A DNA stretch of 64,000 bases from NCBI GenBank assembly GCA_963845515.1, contig CAWJSR010000023.1:160001-224000 (forward strand), given 5' to 3'. Positions within the stretch are counted from its first letter, which is position 1. Each line of letters opens with the position of its first letter. The position numbers are program-made. Origin of the DNA: an uncultured delta proteobacterium. Its GTDB lineage: Bacteria; Myxococcota; Myxococcia; Myxococcales; Anaeromyxobacteraceae. Positions 24,001 to 51,000 of the stretch are shown here, one piece after another.

Positions 24001-27000
24001 GCAGGAGCCCGACGACTGCGGACCCGTAGGCAGCGAAGACGAAGCGGGACCGGTCCCAGCGAGAGGCGAGCCCGCCCATCGTGAGGAGCACGATGACGAA
24101 GCTCGCGGCCTGCGCGCTCAGGAGCCCGGCCGCGGCCGGCGCGCCGAACCCGTGCCGCTGGATCGCGACCGGGATGATGAAGAACGAGAAGCAGGTGAAG
24201 GTCCCCTGGGCTGCGAACTCGGTCGCGGCGAGAGGAAGCGTCTCCGGGTCGGCGCCGGCGATCCTCAGCGCCGCGCCCATCGCGCCCTCCGCCGCCGGCT
24301 GCGCTCCGTCGAGCACGCCCCGCGCCGCCCACGCGGGAAGGACGAAGCTGGCGGCGACGAACCACCACGTGACTGGAAAGCCGAGCGCCGCCACCACGGG
24401 GACGGCGATCGACGGCCCGAGGACGAACATGCTCAGGAGGTGGATGCCGCGGTACCAGCCGGCCCGGGCGTTTCCCTCGAGGGCTAGCCGCTGCATCGTC
24501 ACGACGTTGGTCGAGACGAAGCGGAGCGGCATGCAGAAGCCCACGCCGGTGAAGCACGCGACGAGGAACCAGGGCTGACGCACCAGCGGCACCGCCGCGC
24601 ACGCGAGCCCCCCGAGCAGGCTGCCGCCGATGAAGGCGCTCGCTGGGCCGTGGCGCCGCACCAGCGCGCCGCTCGGCAAGCTCATCAGGACGAGCCCCAG
24701 GCTCTGGCACGCGGCCAGGAGGCCGAGCTCGGTCGGAGAGGAGTGGATCGTGACCGCGTAGAGCGACGTGGCCACCCGCGCCAGCCCCGTGCTGAGCCCC
24801 GCGAGGGCCAGCACCGCCAGGAACGGCGCGATGGGGTCGGCGGCACGCCTCACAGCGACGCGCTCACGGGTCGTGCGGGAAGCCGGCGACGACGAAGCCA
24901 CCCCCGGAGACGTCGAGGCGGGTGCCGGTGACGAACGAGGCCTCGTCGGAGAGGAGCCACAGGATCGGCTTCGCCACCTCGTCGGCGGTCGCCGGGCGGT
25001 TGATCGGGATGGTGGCGCTCACCGCAGCGAGCGCGGCCGCGTCCTCGGTGGCGCGACGGGTCATCGCGGTGCGGGTGAACCCGGGGCGCACGACGTTCAC
25101 CCGGATGCCACGCGCCGCGACCTCCTTGGCGAGCCCCACGCTGAACGCGTCCACCGCCGCCTTGGAGGCGGCGTAGGCGGAGGCCCCGGGCCGACCGCCG
25201 ATGGTCGCCGCCATCGAGGAGACGTTGACGATGGCGCCGCCGCCCGCGCGCGCGTCGAACCGCTTCACGGCCTCGCGGCTCGCGATGATGGTGCCGGTGA
25301 CGTTGGTGGCCCAGAGGGCCGCCAGGTCGGCCGCCGCGAAGCTCGAGATCGGGCCGTGCTTCCCGCCGATCCCGGCGCTGTTCACGAGTCCAGCGAGCGC
25401 GCGCCCGGCGAAGCGGGCGTCGACCTCGTCGAAGAGCCGGACGATCTCCTCCTCCTCCGCGACGTCTGCTCCGAAGGCGTGGATCTCGGCGCCCTTGGCG
25501 CGCAGCTCCGAGACGAGCGCCTCGGCCGCGGCGCGCTGGGAGCGGTAGGTGATGGCGACGGGGATGCCGCGGGCGGCGGCGTGGCGCGCCACCGAGGCGC
25601 CGATGCCGCTGGAGCCGCCGGTGACGAGGATGGGACCGGGCGTCGAGCCCTTGCGAGTGCAGTCGGTCATGGACGCCTCAGACCTGGGGGAACTTCCACT
25701 GGGGGAGCCGGCCGCCGACGGCCTCGCCGGCTGCGATCCGGAAGGCGTCGTGCGTCGGGCTGCTGTTGCCGAGCGCGCCGTAGAGCTGCGCCGTGGTGTA
25801 GCCGTGCTTCGCGAAGATGGCGGCGACCTTCAGCGTCAGGTCGTAGTGCCAGCTGGCCTCGGGCGTGCGGTGCCCCTCCAGCGCCGAGCCCGGGTTCGGG
25901 CACCACTGCCCCGCGAAGCAGATGACCCCCCTCGAGGCGAGGTGCTCGACCCCCTGGAGGATCGAGTCCTTCGGCTCGATCCCGGCCACGATGTTGGAGC
26001 GGACGTTGCCCCGGCCGAACACCTCGGCCGCGCGCTCCAACGCCTTGACCCAGTGGTCCCAGCCGCCGCAGCGCTTCTGCTTGCCCGGGCAGATGGCCTT
26101 GAAGATGTCGCGATCCCAGATCTCCAGGTTCATCGCGAGCGTCGTGTAGCCGGCCTCGCGGTACTTCTCGAGGATCGACAGGTCGAGCGGAGCGCCGATC
26201 ACCGCCGTGCCGTGGATCTGCTTCACGCCGGTCCGCGACTTGATCTCGTCGGCGACGTCCAGGTAGTACTCCACCTCCCGCCGCTCAGGGATGAAGCCGC
26301 CGGTGACGTTGATGTGGTTGGCGAGGTTCAGCTCGTACGCGGCCGCGTAGACCTCGGCCACCTGTCGTGGCGTCTTGAGGAAGATGTTCTGCTTCCGGTA
26401 GGCGTCGGCCGTCGAGTTGATGTTGCAGTATCGGCAGTCGTCGCCTGTCTGCTTCAGGTCGCACTCGTTGCTGAAGAAGACGCCGATGCCCCCCTCCGGC
26501 GTGAAGTTGGCGATGTGGTCGAAGCCCTCGCCATCGCTCGTCTTGAGGTCGAGCAGCTTCGGCCGCTTGTAGAACTCGATGTCGGCGACCCGCTCCCCGT
26601 CCCGGTGGAGGACCGGCTTCCCCGAGTCGGCCTGGAGCCGGTAGCGGGAGTCGGGATCCCAGCGGAACGCGGTGAAGAGCCCGTGGGGCAGGTAGAACGC
26701 TGCCGGCAGCTCGAGGTCGCCGTGGTGCGCCTTGTCCATGTCGAAGAGCAGGTGGATCTGCTCCAGGTTCTCCGTGCCGATCCGGAACTGCCGGAGCGCC
26801 TCGCGGTCGAAGGCGATCCCCTCCACGCCGAGGGCGAGCTTCAGCTTCAGCTCCTCGAGCAGCACGCGCCGGGCGTCCTGCGCCCCGTCGGACGTCACCT
26901 CAGTGGTCTGGGTCTTCTGGCAGCTGGACGTCCCGCTGCAGCCGGTCCGGGCTCGGGCGTTGGCGGCGTTGGGCAGGGTCGTGACTGATTCGGTCATGGC

Positions 27001-48000: not shown

Positions 48001-51000
48001 CGCGCGGCCCCAGCGGCTCAACGTCTTCCCCTACCGTCACTGTCACTTCTGGAACGAAGACGAGGGCTGCCTCTTCTGCGACATCGTCAAGCAGACGCGG
48101 AAGGGCAAGGACGATCTCGGCATCCCGCCGCGCCTCGACCCCGAGGACGTGCGCGAGACGATCGCCGAGGCCCTGCGCGAGCCCGGGCGGTTCGCCGGCC
48201 TCTGCCTGACGGCGGGCTCGAACACCCGCGGCGCCCGTCCGTTCGACGCGGAGGTCGACTACTACATCGAGATCCTCCAGGCCATCGGCTCGGCGTTCAG
48301 GACGCCGCGCTTCCCGAGCCAGCTGATCGGCACGGCCTTCGAGACGGATCAGCTCGAGCGGCTCCACGCCCAGACCGGCCTCATGAGCTACACGGCGGAC
48401 GTCGAGGTGCTGGACGAGAAGCTCTTCTCCTGGATCTGCCCGGGCAAGGCGCGGTGGGTGGGCTACCGCGAGTGGAAGGATCGGCTGGCGCGCGCGGTCG
48501 ACATCTTCGGCCGCGGCAGGGTCAACACGGGCATCGTCGCGGGGGTGGAGCTGGCGCGTCCAAACGGCTTCAGATCAGAGGCCGAAGCCCTGAAGAGGAC
48601 GCTGGACGAGGCGGAGGAGCTCGCCGCGCGCGGGGTCAGCACCGTCTTCATCGTCTGGTCGCCGCGCCCCGGAACGCCGCTCGCCGGGCAGCGCAACGCG
48701 TCGCTGGGCTACTACGTCGCGCTCGCGAAGGGGCTGCACGATCTCCGCGTCCGACATGGCCTCCCGATCGACTTCGACGACTACCGCCACTGCGGCAATC
48801 ACCCCGACACCGACCTCTCGAGGCTCCTGTGACCACCGCCGTCGCTCTCGATCCACGCGTCAAGGCGCTGCTCGACGATCCGACCACGGTGAAGGTGCTG
48901 GCCACGAGCGATCGCGCCGGGCGCCCGCGCGCCACCGTCGACGACTCGATCCACCTGGGTCCGGGCGGCCACCTAGTCTACCTGGAGCGGCTGGAGGGCT
49001 CGGGGACCCAGCGGGACCTCGTGGCGGGGATCTGGTTCGACCGGCCGGTGGCCGTCACGCTCCGCAGGGGGCAGGAGGAGGTCGAGATCGTCGGGCGTCC
49101 GGTGAAGTCGCTCGTCGCCGGTCCCGAGTTCCGGCGCCACTACGAGGCGCTGCGCGCCCGCCTGCCGGAGGGAGACCTGGCCGCCGTCTGGCTCATCCAG
49201 CCGAGCGAGGTCTCCGACCTTTCGTACGACGTCCGCCGCGCCCGCCAGGAGGCGGAGCGCCCCTTCCTCACCCACCTCGACCGACTGGCGCGGTAGCGCC
49301 CCTCAGGAGGAGCACCATGTCCCGCATCCGGCAGTCCGTCCTCGCGATCCTCGCCCTCACGGCGTTGGCCGTCCCCGTTGCGCCGCTGGCAGAGGTGAAG
49401 GAGGTCCGGATCGCCAGGCAGCACGGTCTGGGGTACCTGCCGCTCCTCGTCCTGGAGGACCAGAAGCTCATCGAGCGTCGCGCGGCGGAGGCGGGGCTCG
49501 GCGACGTGAAGGTCACCTGGGCCGTCCTCGGCGGCGGCGCCCCGTCCAACGACGCGCTCCTCTCCGGCAGCGTCGACTACATCTCGACCGGCGTCACGCC
49601 GCTCGTCCTGCTCTGGGCGAAGTCGGGCGGCAAGGTCAAGGGCGTCTCCGCGCTCATCTCGACGCCCGTCGTCGTGAACACCACCAACCCCGCGGTGAAG
49701 ACGATCGCCGACTTTGGCGAGAAGGACCGGATCGCGGTCCCGTCGGTGAAGATCTCGATCCAGGCGGTGGTGCTGCAGATCGCCGCCGAGAAGGCGTTCG
49801 GCGCCGGCAACCACGGCCGGCTCGATCCGCTCACGGTGGCGTTGAAGCACCCCGACGCCGTAGCGGCCCTGCTCTCCGGCCGCTCCGAGATCACCGGCCA
49901 CGCCGCGAGCCCGCCCTTCGTGGCGCAGGAGCTGGCCGACAAGCGCGTCCGGAAGGTGCTCTCGTCCTACGAGGTGCTCGGCGGGCCCCACACCTTCAAC
50001 GTGCTCTCCTCCTCGCAGACCTTCGCGGACGCGAACCCCAGGACGTTCGCGGTGGTCTACGGCGCGCTGTCCGAGGCCATCGCCTGGATCCAGAAGAACC
50101 CGAAGGCCGCCGCGGAGACCTACCTCCGAGTCACCGGCTCGAAGGAGCCCGTCGGCTCGGTGGTCGCGCAGATCGAGGATCCGACCATCCGCTACACGAC
50201 GACGCCGGAGCGGGTGGGGGTGTTCGCGGAGTTCCTCGCGCGTGTCGGGACCGTCTCGGCGCGCCCGAAGGACTGGCGCGACCTGTTCTTCCCCACCGTG
50301 CACGCGCAGCCGGGGAGCTGACGTGTCGGAGCATGCCTCGGGCCCCGGCGCGCCGCTGCTGGACGTGGCGGGGGTGACGCTTCGTTACCGGAGCGCCGGG
50401 CGCATGGTGGACGCCACCGACGCGGTCTCCTTCCAGGTGAACGAGGGGGAGCGGGTGGCGCTGCTGGGGCCCTCGGGCTGCGGGAAGTCGACGCTGCTCA
50501 AGGCCATCGCCGGCTTCCACCGGCCGGCCGCGGGCCGGATCTCGCTGCGCGGCAAGGACGTGGTCGCGGCCGGTCCCGACCGCGTGGTTGTCTTTCAGGA
50601 GTTCGAGCAGCTCCTCCCCTGGCTGACCGTCACCGAGAACGTCGTCTTCGCCCTCAGAATCCGCGCGCGGCCTCGCGCGACCGGAGGCGCTCCGCATCAC
50701 GAAGGAGCACGTCGCCCGGGTGAACCTCACGGGCTTCGCCGACGCCTACCCGCACGAGCTCTCCGGCGGGATGAAGCAGCGCGTGGCCATCGCCCGCTGC
50801 CTCGCGCTGAAGCCGGAGGTGGTGCTCATGGACGAGCCGTTTGCCGCCCTCGACGCCCTCACGCGCCAGCGGATGCAGGACGAGCTGCTCGAGCTCTGGA
50901 AGGCCGCCCGCTTCACGCTGGTCTTCGTGACCCACGACATCGCCGAGGCGCTTCGGGTCGGCACCAGGGTGGTGCTCATGTCCGCGCACCCGGGGCGCGT

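Follow-up and report, generated by a model that had tools for sequence, protein, structure and literature searches.

The nitrogenase-like "isethionate reductase" (Isr) system was discovered recently, and the soil or sediment myxobacterium studied here has an enlarged version of it. We read the locus, with a probability of roughly 0.6, as an island built around an Isr-type (Group IV-F) enzyme for anaerobic acquisition of organosulfonates (organosulfur), which would be used most likely under sulfate shortage. The layout suggests that the radical SAM proteins (rSAMs) are catalysts in their own right, acting on different sulfur compounds taken up by the importers, and not mere helpers. The Anaeromyxobacteraceae, to which this organism belongs, live anaerobically. 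By the window we mean the whole 64,000-nucleotide stretch of contig CAWJSR010000023.1 (C23) that was analysed; coordinates are window positions, contig position 160,001 being window position 1.

Gene content and order of the locus

Pfam and NCBIfam searches confirmed the genes and their order as given in the preliminary description. The minus strand holds an SDR, two rSAMs, K, D, H, an ABC ATPase, two permeases, an SsuA/NMT1-type binding protein, a porin, a third rSAM, an MFS-PNPOx fusion, two HGD-D proteins and a BcrAD_BadFG activase; divergent from these, the plus strand holds MetK, rSAM, HAD and rSAM. The former end coordinate, 49296, cuts through a module that extends to 51963. As claimed before, the genome (88% complete) has no other nitrogenase-type D/K genes: D and K of the locus are the sole matches in tblastn and PF00148 searches. 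The SDR oxidoreductase (24864..25670, minus; adh_short_C2 176 bits) has orthologs 71-79% identical in five relatives (L002-L006), and its adjacency to the rSAMs is kept in Anaeromyxobacteraceae. A sigma-54-type activator with AAA+ core and HTH but without sensor domain (22567..23715, plus; Sigma54_activat 227 bits; NifA/NorR-like in NCBIfam, with scores under the cut-offs) is possibly the regulator of the locus, near which no match to a -24/-12 promoter was found; a search of the locus for S-box and sigma-54 promoter evidence gave none, which weighs against the island reading.

The HDK enzyme belongs to Group IV-F

The K subunit (28289..29722, minus; PF00148 208 bits), the D subunit (29725..31128, minus; PF00148 189 bits) and a NifH-like ATP-dependent reductase (31144..32016, minus; Fer4_NifH 315 bits), whose P-loop, Cys97 and Cys133 lie in invariant columns, make up the nitrogenase-like enzyme. 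In the trees, D groups with Rhodobacter capsulatus IsrD, separate from Mar-like and Nif D/E proteins: variant-rSAM-linked D proteins, including those of R. capsulatus and the window, form one clade with FastTree (47 of 113 rows, support 100) and with IQ-TREE PMSF (29 of 49 rows, SH-aLRT 100). Clade placement, which had depended on best hits, is now backed by trees. HDK shares this clade with R. capsulatus IsrHDK, yet it belongs to a different subclade; identity to the R. capsulatus SP18 locus is 71% for H, 36% for D, 38% for K and 57% for the best rSAM (rSAM3), in agreement with the Swiss-Prot identities reported earlier. The low identity of D to IsrD and its place in another subclade count against the island reading.

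The cluster ligands, previously left open, were also examined. Cys10, Cys35 and Cys100 of K align with the NifK Cys70/95/153 columns, which are conserved in 27 of 27 IV-F rows. D has a single Cys75 in the NifD Cys88 column and, in the alignment columns, no equivalents of NifD Cys62, Cys154, Cys275 and His442; its best PDB match is 9fmg/9d9u (E 1e-33). With one Cys from D and three from K, DK is predicted to carry solely an inter-subunit [4Fe-4S] cluster, and would thus work as a DPOR/COR-type electron-transfer catalyst, unlike nitrogenase or MAR. The ligand pattern equals that published for IsrDK (PMC13474568, section 9.4) and, together with the trees, it upholds the view of an Isr-type nitrogenase-like system that does not fix nitrogen.

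Five variant radical SAM proteins represent four old subfamilies

All five rSAMs score above the 125-bit cut-off of NF045502 (variant_rSAM) and are pairwise 24-58% identical. rSAM1 (25678..26997, minus; 432 bits), with its C-x8-C-x2-C and CPGK motifs, belongs in the tree to a subfamily common to Chlorobiaceae, Chloroflexales, Rhodopila and Geobacteraceae; rSAM4 (45287..46546, plus; 396 bits) is a fast-evolving member of the same subfamily (end branch 0.77). rSAM2 (27029..28273, minus; 457 bits) falls in an orthogroup of its own in the tree. rSAM3 (37548..38795, minus; 437 bits), the ortholog of R. capsulatus IsrB, lies in a 10-row clade with support 99, and its AF2 model (pLDDT 94) has a HydE/LipA/BioB/PylB/MqnE/ThiH-like fold. 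The deep-branching rSAM5, designated X1 type (47552..48832, plus; 186 bits), forms its own clade (support 100, branch 1.81). Across the rSAMs the three cluster Cys are the sole invariant Cys, the CPGK Cys is nearly invariant, and the NCBIfam search gave no NifB-type match. The earlier notion of five IsrB maturase paralogs is correct in that all five are variant rSAMs, but only rSAM3 groups with IsrB, and it fails for rSAM5, which is part of a module also found without an Isr-type HDK.

In this module rSAM5 is followed by a small protein (48829..49296, plus) that matches no Pfam family and stands directly after an X1-type rSAM in 10 of 10 examined loci (alignment A5). Judging by its AF2 model (pLDDT 86) and Foldseek matches to HupZ, an FMN-binding protein and F420 reductases, it is a split-barrel flavoprotein with a PNPOx-like fold. 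Next comes a second SsuABC-type importer (49302..51963, plus; TIGR01728 80 bits, ABC_tran pieces, BPD_transp_1) composed of a binding protein (49302-50321), an ATPase (~50320-51109, frame change at ~50680) and a permease (51100-51963). The module, reaching ~51.96 kb and conserved in L153-L156, occurs in all four examined relatives without IV-F D, and would be autonomous.

Catalysts or maturases

Neighbourhood counts were made on loci picked by rSAM or D patterns from the best 80 of 313 matches; many of these loci end at contig ends, and kin among them are not independent. In loci from these best 80 of 313 matches, 60 of 119 distinct rSAM genes adjoin an ABC-importer gene, 44 adjoin a binding protein and 91 have an importer gene within 3 kb; at least two rSAMs occur in 20 of 44 organism groups, just one D-K pair in 42 as far as the fetched DNA reaches (two Rhodopseudomonas loci have a second, Mar-like D) and a PNP_UDP_1 nucleosidase in 11. 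MetK is found in 23 of the 44 groups whose loci hold D and rSAM (Bacillota 18/24, Myxococcota 5/6, Pseudomonadota 0/6; same best 80 of 313 matches).

The MetK of our locus (44135..45283, plus; TIGR01034 477 bits, above cut-off) is a sulfur-poor SAM synthetase with 2 Cys and 2 Met (4 sulfur residues), compared with 4 and 9 (13) in the second MetK, which was indeed found elsewhere in the genome, on contig C43, and is 58% identical. The accessory type (at least 80% identity) is present in 5/5 family genomes with D and in 1/87 without it. Co-location of MetK, formerly suspected to be coincidental, is not so: the accessory type tracks D in the family, and MetK reappears in the fetched loci. Neither the several IsrB-like rSAMs nor the accessory MetK mark out this genome, both being frequent among the IV-F loci of Bacillota and Myxococcota.

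rSAM paralogs often adjoin importer genes, and MetK and 5'-deoxyadenosine-type nucleosidases are encoded close by. This arrangement speaks more for catalysts that are substrate-specific and consume SAM than for maturases, as do the fold, which resembles that of small-molecule rSAMs, the X1-type module and the relation of IsrB to the methyl hydroxylase BciD. The four subfamilies would most likely be substrate-specific enzymes that consume SAM at each turnover, which would explain the sulfur-poor MetK here and the nucleosidases in other loci. C-S cleavage would require both a variant rSAM and the ATP-driven NifH-like/DK reductase, as R. capsulatus IsrBHDK genetics show: deletion of H or DK abolishes growth on isethionate, according to the mSphere report (PMC11423573), therefore an IsrB-type rSAM alone is insufficient.

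A maturase or activator role of the IsrB-type rSAM fits these genetics equally well. As a general account of the locus, it is rather unlikely that the IsrB-like rSAMs assemble a cofactor, put it in place or activate IsrDK, with DK cleaving the C-S bond unaided and the paralogs taking different assembly steps. Such helpers have a parallel in NifB and MarB, the maturases of nitrogenase and MAR clusters (PMC13474568, section 8.3), and the essentiality of IsrB in R. capsulatus (PMC11423573, section 'Function of IsrB', where the maturase role is treated as unproven) also speaks for them. In 5/5 tested genomes whose rSAM loci had no HDK, IV-F D was present along with the IsrB-type copies, a pattern that a dependent helper would also give, and rSAM2, which in Anaeromyxobacteraceae always comes after D-K, has diverged much less (80-85%) than D or K (59-71%), as would suit a substrate-independent helper. 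However, a second cluster would find no ligands in DK, and the rSAMs have neither auxiliary-cluster Cys nor NifB similarity. Several old rSAM subfamilies adjoin a single D-K pair (42/44 groups, best 80 of 313 matches), often each next to a binding protein of its own; an accessory MetK and nucleosidases imply high SAM turnover; a related rSAM module occurs in genomes that have no Isr-type HDK; and HDK is found with one rSAM, which is of the rSAM2 type in G033 and of the rSAM3 type in R. capsulatus.

A double-cubane-like pair and other accessory genes

The beta-like HGD-D subunit (40575..41800, minus; 3 conserved Cys; HGD-D 104 bits; PDB 7yyl, E 2.7e-9) has an ORF reaching 42062, its start being placed from orthologs. 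The alpha subunit (41783..42913, minus) resembles double-cubane cluster proteins, with 6 of 7 motif Cys in aligned columns, an NF040772 score of 237.5 bits that is below the cut-off of 350, and PDB matches 7yyl/6eno (E 1e-38). The BcrAD_BadFG ATP-dependent activase/reductase (42882..43770, minus; PF01869 194 bits; TIGR00241 249 bits, above cut-off) has an ORF reaching 44132 and a start likewise set by aligned orthologs. Two HGD-D proteins and an activase are present as described, but the pair is nearer to double-cubane cluster proteins/reductases than to HgdAB; in other phyla, too, an HGD-D/activase module turns up next to members of this rSAM family. Together they would form a second ATP-driven low-potential reductase tied to the rSAM1 subfamily. 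In the gene at 38820..40499 (minus; MFS_1, PNPOx_N) an MFS transporter and a PNPOx-like flavin domain are fused, as they are in Anaeromyxobacter oryzae; other loci have separate PNPOx and MFS/MatE genes. The HAD-type phosphatase (46721..47421, plus) has a frame change near 46.9 kb (GC3 plot), with the DxD motif in the 46547-46918 frame and the HAD domain in the 46639-47421 frame.

Importers and sulfur setting

The first SsuBC/TauBC-type importer (32027..34552, minus; Pfam, NCBIfam) consists of an ATPase (32027-32824) and two permeases (32852-33649 and 33662-34552), whose sulfonate/taurine/nitrate-type NCBIfam matches are under the cut-offs. A single surplus base at 35291 breaks the gene of its SsuA-family binding protein (34575..35652, minus; TIGR01728 matches on both pieces) in two. 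An assembly error is the probable cause of this frameshift: the base is missing from a >99% identical contig of run X1, and relatives L001 and L003 are intact. Further frame changes are those in the HAD and in the second ABC ATPase (~50.68 kb). The anion-type outer-membrane porin (Porin_O_P, PF07396, E 4.5e-7; 35670..37130, minus), whose ORF reaches 37454 with a likely, signal-peptide-like start near 37130, is conserved across the loci of Anaeromyxobacteraceae, Geobacter and Chlorobium. Anionic substrates would enter through this porin and then through the two SsuABC-type importers.

The locus sits inside a sulfate/cysteine assimilation island: the upstream flank encodes CysDN, a sulfate ABC transporter, CysM/ThiF-rhodanese/JAB, CBS and a Cys/Met PLP enzyme, and a NIR_SIR sulfite reductase (C23:157673-158953) lies directly ahead of the window. 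Cys+Met content is at or below the genome median in 21 of 22 locus proteins and in the lowest tenth in 8, D being at the 1st percentile. These features and the importers fit the sulfur-acquisition role proposed before, in which sulfite would be released to the flanking sulfite reductase and cysteine-synthesis genes; a TauD-family gene in the same genome counts against the island reading.

The binding proteins score 87.7 and 80.3 bits, below the SsuA cut-off of 163.5, so the scores do not fix the substrate class. Import of a non-sulfur class by NitT/TauT-type systems (e.g. nitro, nitrile, phosphonate or pyrimidine-like compounds), with the sulfur neighbours incidental, seems improbable nonetheless. 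Binding-protein and permease scores are under every equivalog cut-off, nitrate- and phosphonate-type models score too, and IV-F subclades probably differ in function according to the review (PMC13474568, section 10); but the flanking assimilation genes, the sulfite reductase and the sulfur-poor proteins speak for sulfur, as do genes of the cysteine synthase and methionine transporter types in loci from Firmicutes (best 80 of 313 matches) and the sulfonate substrate of the characterised clade member (PMC11423573). We give slightly less credence still to a biosynthetic role, in which rSAMs, SDR, PNPOx, HAD and reductases would make a modified cofactor or natural product for export by MFS/MatE, with the nitrogenase-like enzyme as a DPOR/CfbCD-like ring reductase. 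DK does resemble [4Fe-4S]-only enzymes acting on tetrapyrroles (PMC13474568, section 2.4), efflux-type transporters recur, and BciD, the closest Swiss-Prot relative of IsrB (PMC11423573), is a methyl hydroxylase acting on bacteriochlorophyllide (PMC7242693), yet importers accompanied by binding proteins prevail in the neighbourhoods (best 80 of 313 matches), Pfam finds no tetrapyrrole, NRPS or PKS scaffold genes within the window, and genetic work in R. capsulatus connects the clade with the use of isethionate (PMC11423573). Least probable is that sulfonate cleavage supplies sulfite as a respiratory electron acceptor rather than for assimilation: this suits the lifestyle of the family, and the mSphere report raises both options (section 'Distribution of Isr'), but two ATP-consuming reductases plus SAM use would be costly, as that report also argues, and the neighbours (CysDN, CysM, sulfate importer) are assimilatory and the proteins sulfur-poor.

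Distribution among relatives

The enzyme was thought to be confined to its genus. D is, however, present in 5 of 92 family genomes and in two genera, namely in all three genomes of its own genus and in 2 of 37 of the second, one of which matches the cultured A. oryzae Red232.

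Gene content of the locus

Scanning the open reading frames of the window (about 70% G+C) with Pfam and NCBIfam models recovered the gene set and order of the preliminary description. On the minus strand lie an SDR gene (24864-25670), the variant radical SAM genes rSAM1 (25678-26997) and rSAM2 (27029-28273), the nitrogenase-like (NFL) subunit genes K (28289-29722) and D (29725-31128), NifH-like H (31144-32016; Fer4_NifH, 315 bits), and genes for an ABC ATPase with its two permeases (32027-34552). They are followed by the gene of an SsuA/NMT1-type binding protein (SBP1; 34575-35652), a porin gene of the Porin_O_P family (35670 to near 37130), rSAM3 (37548-38795), a fused MFS-PNPOx gene (38820-40499), a pair of HGD-D genes (40575 to near 42913) and the gene for a BcrAD_BadFG activase (42882 to near 43770). 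A divergent series on the plus strand comprises MetK (44135-45283; TIGR01034, 477 bits against a cut-off of 309), rSAM4 (45287-46546), a HAD phosphatase and rSAM5 (47552-48832), followed by a small gene without a Pfam family. The locus had been taken to end at 49296, where this small gene ends; however, genes of a second importer, namely the SsuA-family binding protein SBP2 (49302-50321), an ABC ATPase and then a permease, continue the rSAM5 series to 51963. All five NF045502-type rSAMs of this genome (88% complete) are in the locus and, as had been claimed, D and K are its sole PF00148 (Oxidored_nitro) genes. The second metK was also found again, on contig C43, at 58% identity.

The frame of SBP1 changes through one extra base at 35291. 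Since the frame also changes in the HAD gene (about 46900) and in the second ABC ATPase (about 50680), that is, in three genes within 16 kb, assembly indel errors are the simplest reading, which suggests that these are not pseudogenes. For SBP1 a true pseudogene is unlikely: the orthologs in two related loci (L001 and L003) are unbroken, and a contig from sequencing run X1 (99+% alike, one other letter in 1147) lacks the extra base, although X1 may be the source sample and its contig is then not an independent check. SBP2 was ruled out as a frameshifted gene, as the piece upstream of it is a separate, conserved small gene.

D and K belong to the Isr-type clade

The earlier assignment to the Isr-type (Group IV-F) enzymes, made without a tree, is borne out by two trees with named reference loci retrieved by D, H and rSAM queries: D stands beside IsrD and apart from the Mar-like (IV-C) and Nif D/E sequences, the IV-F label being anchored on one named locus, that of Rhodobacter capsulatus SP18 (L142), with no labelled IV-A, IV-D or IV-E sequences in the trees. 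In FastTree (113 D-type rows, all from ORFs of at least 330 aa), window D and L142 fall within a 47-row clade with support 100, whose sister is the Mar-like group, with Nif D/E next; every D that adjoins a variant rSAM is inside this clade. IQ-TREE PMSF, run on 49 rows chosen by hand from the 113, recovered the clade as 29 rows (SH-aLRT 100) and placed window D in an 8-row subclade (support 99), distinct from the alphaproteobacterial Isr clade, together with Anaeromyxobacteraceae sequences and one MAG each of Fibrobacteres and Thiodictyon.

The cluster ligands, unchecked until now, fit this placement. D has one Cys only, Cys75, in the column of NifD Cys88, and carries Arg42, Pro128, Asp243 and Gln411 at the columns of NifD Cys62, Cys154, Cys275 and His442, respectively. 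Cys10, Cys35 and Cys100 of K occupy the columns of NifK Cys70, Cys95 and Cys153 and are kept in 27/27 IV-F rows. The pattern equals that published for IsrDK (1 + 3 Cys), which is read as an interface [4Fe-4S] cluster in the part of review PMC13474568 that treats it; the same part reports that pull-downs recovered only IsrK with IsrD. In H, the GKGGIGKS P-loop, Cys97 and Cys133 are invariant in 7/7 sequences.

Compared with IsrBHDK of R. capsulatus, the window locus shares the D clade, the 1 + 3 Cys pattern and an adjacent SsuABC-type importer. H is 71% identical and rSAM3, the IsrB ortholog, 57%, whereas D (36%) and K (38%) belong to another subclade. The window locus adds four further rSAMs, which belong to three other subfamilies, as well as an accessory MetK, a porin, the MFS-PNPOx and SDR proteins, a DCCP-like module (double-cubane cluster protein; see below) and the second importer, but has neither xsc nor tpa. 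It is an enlarged, modular member of the Isr kind. With D 36% identical to IsrD and in another subclade, isethionate reductase is only a candidate function of the window HDK.

MarBHDK (Group IV-C; PDB 9fmg, 9d9u) is the top solved-structure match of window D (E 1e-33) and is likewise an ATP-driven NFL of anaerobic sulfur acquisition. Unlike Mar and Nif, however, window D lacks the P-cluster Cys and Cys270/His429-type ligands, and the partner rSAMs are unrelated to NifB/MarB. Methylthio-alkane reductase activity was absent in 3/8 published IV-F systems, according to the relevant part of PMC13753814. DPOR and COR (BchLNB, BchXYZ), as outlined in PMC13474568, have an inter-subunit [4Fe-4S] cluster only and reduce their organic substrate directly. 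The ligands of window DK predict the same single type of cluster, yet DK belongs to another clade, has 1 Cys (D) + 3 Cys (K) as ligands where DPOR and COR have 3 Cys + Asp, and has no pigment genes nearby.

The five rSAMs represent four old subfamilies

rSAM1 to rSAM5 match the NF045502 'variant_rSAM' model with 432, 457, 437, 396 and 186 bits (curated cut-off 125), and all five have the C-x8-C-x2-C and CPGK motifs. Of the Cys, none but the three cluster ligands is invariant across 72 rSAM sequences, and one further Cys is nearly so. The preliminary description had treated the five as IsrB paralogs. In the rSAM tree (120 rows, ORFs of at least 300 aa, duplicates merged), they instead fall into four old, phylum-spanning subfamilies, and only rSAM3 stands beside IsrB, in a 10-row clade with support 99 that includes the R. 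capsulatus protein. rSAM2 is the Anaeromyxobacteraceae copy placed after D-K; rSAM1 and the fast-evolving rSAM4 cluster with copies from Chlorobiaceae, Chloroflexales, Rhodopila and Geobacteraceae, and rSAM5 is a deep, separate branch.

The NifB model is absent from the NCBIfam matches of the rSAMs, and no NifB chain is among the Foldseek matches listed for the AlphaFold model of rSAM3 (pLDDT 94), whose closest folds are HydE, LipA, BioB, PylB, MqnE, HydG and ThiH. The NifB motifs and extra cluster-binding Cys of NifB/MarB-type maturases are lacking in the window rSAMs. The authors of the Isr primary paper (PMC11423573) name BciD as the closest Swiss-Prot relative of IsrB in their section on this protein. 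BciD, in the portion of PMC7242693 concerned, is a bacteriochlorophyllide c C7-methyl hydroxylase, a single-domain rSAM with a small-molecule substrate and SAM as co-substrate. The Chlorobiaceae relatives found for the window rSAMs stand in importer/HGD-D contexts, not in pigment clusters.

Among the control genomes, NF045502 has matches in Methanosarcina acetivorans and in Synechococcus elongatus, and one of these two is above cut-off; G025, a family genome without a IV-F D, has a copy only 33% identical to the window paralogs. The variant-rSAM family therefore extends beyond the members that are linked to an NFL.

Variant rSAM genes often lie beside importers

The neighbourhood loci were query-selected (best 80 of 313 matches) and many end at contig ends, so the following counts describe a pattern and not frequencies: 60/119 distinct rSAM genes directly adjoin an ABC-importer gene, 44 of these a binding protein, and 26/119 adjoin H, D or K; among 44 organism groups whose retrieved DNA has both D and an rSAM, at least two rSAMs occur in 20 and at least three in 9, MetK in 23, a PNPOx-type protein in 17 and a PNP_UDP_1 nucleosidase in 11.

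The module of rSAM5, small protein, SBP2, ATPase and permease is kept in four relatives, with rSAM5 76-84% identical. At E 1e-40 a IV-F D is absent from these four, and nif-like DKEN clusters are present on other contigs of theirs. The small protein (48829-49296), predicted to fold as a PNPOx/FMN-binding split barrel, has a counterpart of about 150 aa 3' of the rSAM5-type gene in 10/10 loci (L093, L096, L114, L115, L143, L153-L157).

Neither importer is assigned by curated models: the SBP1 pieces score 87.7 and 41.3 bits and SBP2 80.3 bits in the SsuA family (cut-off 163.5), and the permeases and ATPases are under the SsuC/SsuB/TauBC cut-offs. The relative conservation of binding protein and D/K was dropped as an argument, as the N-terminal part of SBP1 (66-80% identical to orthologs) is not clearly different from D/K. 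In the closest relative, L001, D is 93% identical and this part only 67%, versus 77-80% in more distant relatives; its importer may have been exchanged.

The HGD-D pair resembles double-cubane cluster proteins

DCCP is a homodimer, whereas the HGD-D alpha subunit of the window is paired with a diverged beta that retains three Cys, and the pair is linked to rSAM and importer genes. The label given to it before, an HgdABC-like 2-hydroxyacyl-CoA dehydratase, did not hold: the HadC model (cut-off 700) scores 101.9 bits, and dehydratase 3o3m ranks only fifth for alpha (E 1e-19), after DCCP and BzdN/MbdN. The top matches of alpha are DCCP structures (PDB 7yyl and 6eno, E 1e-38), ahead of subunits of benzoyl-CoA reductase and of dehydratases, with NF040772 at 237.5 bits (cut-off 350). 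As in DCCP with its ATP-dependent reductase, the activase lies alongside. Of the 7-Cys DCCP motif (Haft 2022, bioRxiv 10.1101/2022.07.06.499078), alpha retains 6/7 Cys at matching spacing, the second being Phe, and two extra Cys are conserved.

In loci of Chlorobiaceae and Geobacteraceae, similar HGD-D/activase sets adjoin genes of the rSAM1 type. A module of HGD-D and rSAM acting independently of HDK was ruled out, since 5/5 such genomes have a IV-F-type D elsewhere. The SAO locus of Clostridia, in the sections of the same preprint devoted to it, has a NitT/TauT-type ABC importer and often stands beside double-cubane proteins and activase; SaoA and SaoP are the best-scoring NCBIfam models for the window importer, under cut-off. 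The window, however, lacks the MerB-like SaoL, selenocysteine features and SaoE/C/X, and the SAO locus, as described in those sections, has no NFL genes.

Isr-type and Nif-type systems are differently distributed in the family

The locus had been thought confined to its genus, but D was found in 5/92 family genomes from two genera: 3/3 in its own genus and 2/37 in a second, where one of the two matches A. oryzae Red232. This organism is cultured and has the core, its locus comprising a porin, SsuABC, H, D, K, rSAM2, SDR, MFS-PNPOx, rSAM3 and MetK, so that experiments are possible. The five D genomes hold 4, 3, 3, 2 and 1 high-scoring NF045502 copies; the divergent rSAM5 type occurs in six further family genomes without D. 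A MetK match is present in 86/92 genomes, usually a 56-59% housekeeping-type copy, and the accessory type (at least 80% identity) in the five D genomes and one other. The DCCP-like alpha subunit is restricted to the window's genus (3/3), besides one weak match among the 92. Consecutive nif-like PF00148 genes were seen in second-genus relatives (four each in G009, G026 and G028, seven in G037 and three, at a contig end, in G025), with no such run in the window's genome.

Variant rSAMs as possible catalysts

A sulfur-acquisition role of the locus is well supported by its genomic context. A CysO-type sulfur-carrier set (ThiF-rhodanese, DUF4395, CysM-like PALP, JAB protease) stands beside CysDN and a sulfate ABC importer at 892-12049, CBS and a Cys/Met PLP enzyme are also upstream of the locus, and a sulfite reductase lies directly upstream of the window (C23:157673-158953). 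For 21/22 locus proteins the Cys+Met content does not exceed the genome median, and 8/22 fall in the lowest tenth. A search for a glycyl radical enzyme found none, and one TauD-family gene was found.

The pattern favours rSAM catalysis, though genetics in R. capsulatus shows that HDK is essential there. We tentatively propose, at a probability of roughly 0.3, that the BciD-like variant rSAMs are the true, substrate-specific C-S-cleaving catalysts, and that HDK and the double-cubane-like pair are shared, interchangeable redox partners. The rSAMs in Isr-type systems would then be an oxygen-free counterpart of TauD/SsuD. They might hydroxylate the substrate next to its sulfonate group, and the product would then break into aldehyde and sulfite, at the expense of one SAM per turnover, while HDK and the double-cubane-like pair would serve several rSAMs as ATP-driven, low-potential redox partners.

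If rSAM catalysis is true, 'isethionate reductase' would be a misnomer and every rSAM plus importer cassette would stand for an organosulfur substrate of its own. Organic sulfur is dominant in soils and sediments, and the pattern seen in this island and its relatives suggests that many organosulfur compounds are handled there through a modular, anaerobic route. The pattern is testable: a single HDK occurs with several old rSAM subfamilies, with importer genes next to the rSAMs, with a dedicated MetK that is poor in sulfur, with nucleosidases and small flavoproteins and, in certain lineages, with a second ATP-driven reductase.

Among nitrogenase-like functions Isr is the most recent, and the evidence for it is genetic and comes from one organism; the sections of the primary paper PMC11423573 and of the 2026 review PMC13474568 on the subject leave open the role of IsrB and the functions of other IV-F members. 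In the literature searched, no paper links Isr to MetK, to rSAM multiplicity or to double-cubane proteins, and 'metK' has 0 occurrences in PMC11423573, PMC13474568 and PMC13753814. Published IV-F member lists (e.g., Figures 8-9 of PMC11423573) may already include Anaeromyxobacter.

Regulatory elements

No Rfam family matched within the window at gathering scores, and no sigma-70 promoter or terminator was found in 43500-44300. A single match to the sigma-54 -24/-12 motif was seen, at 54311 and with one mismatch; chance alone would give 1.98. Seven Firmicute loci had no S-box in Rfam, one TwoAYGGAY RNA and one T-box, the latter a leader upstream of an importer permease in Clostridium polyendosporum (L106, 4501-4753). 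tRNA-like Rfam matches lie inside two Lachnospiraceae Isr-type loci (L130, 6047-6117; L144, 2596-2666). In the Anaeromyxobacteraceae MAG locus L003, a match to the SAM_alpha riboswitch barely above the gathering score (21282-21358; 38.8 bits against 36) lies about 10 kb downstream of the Isr-type D.
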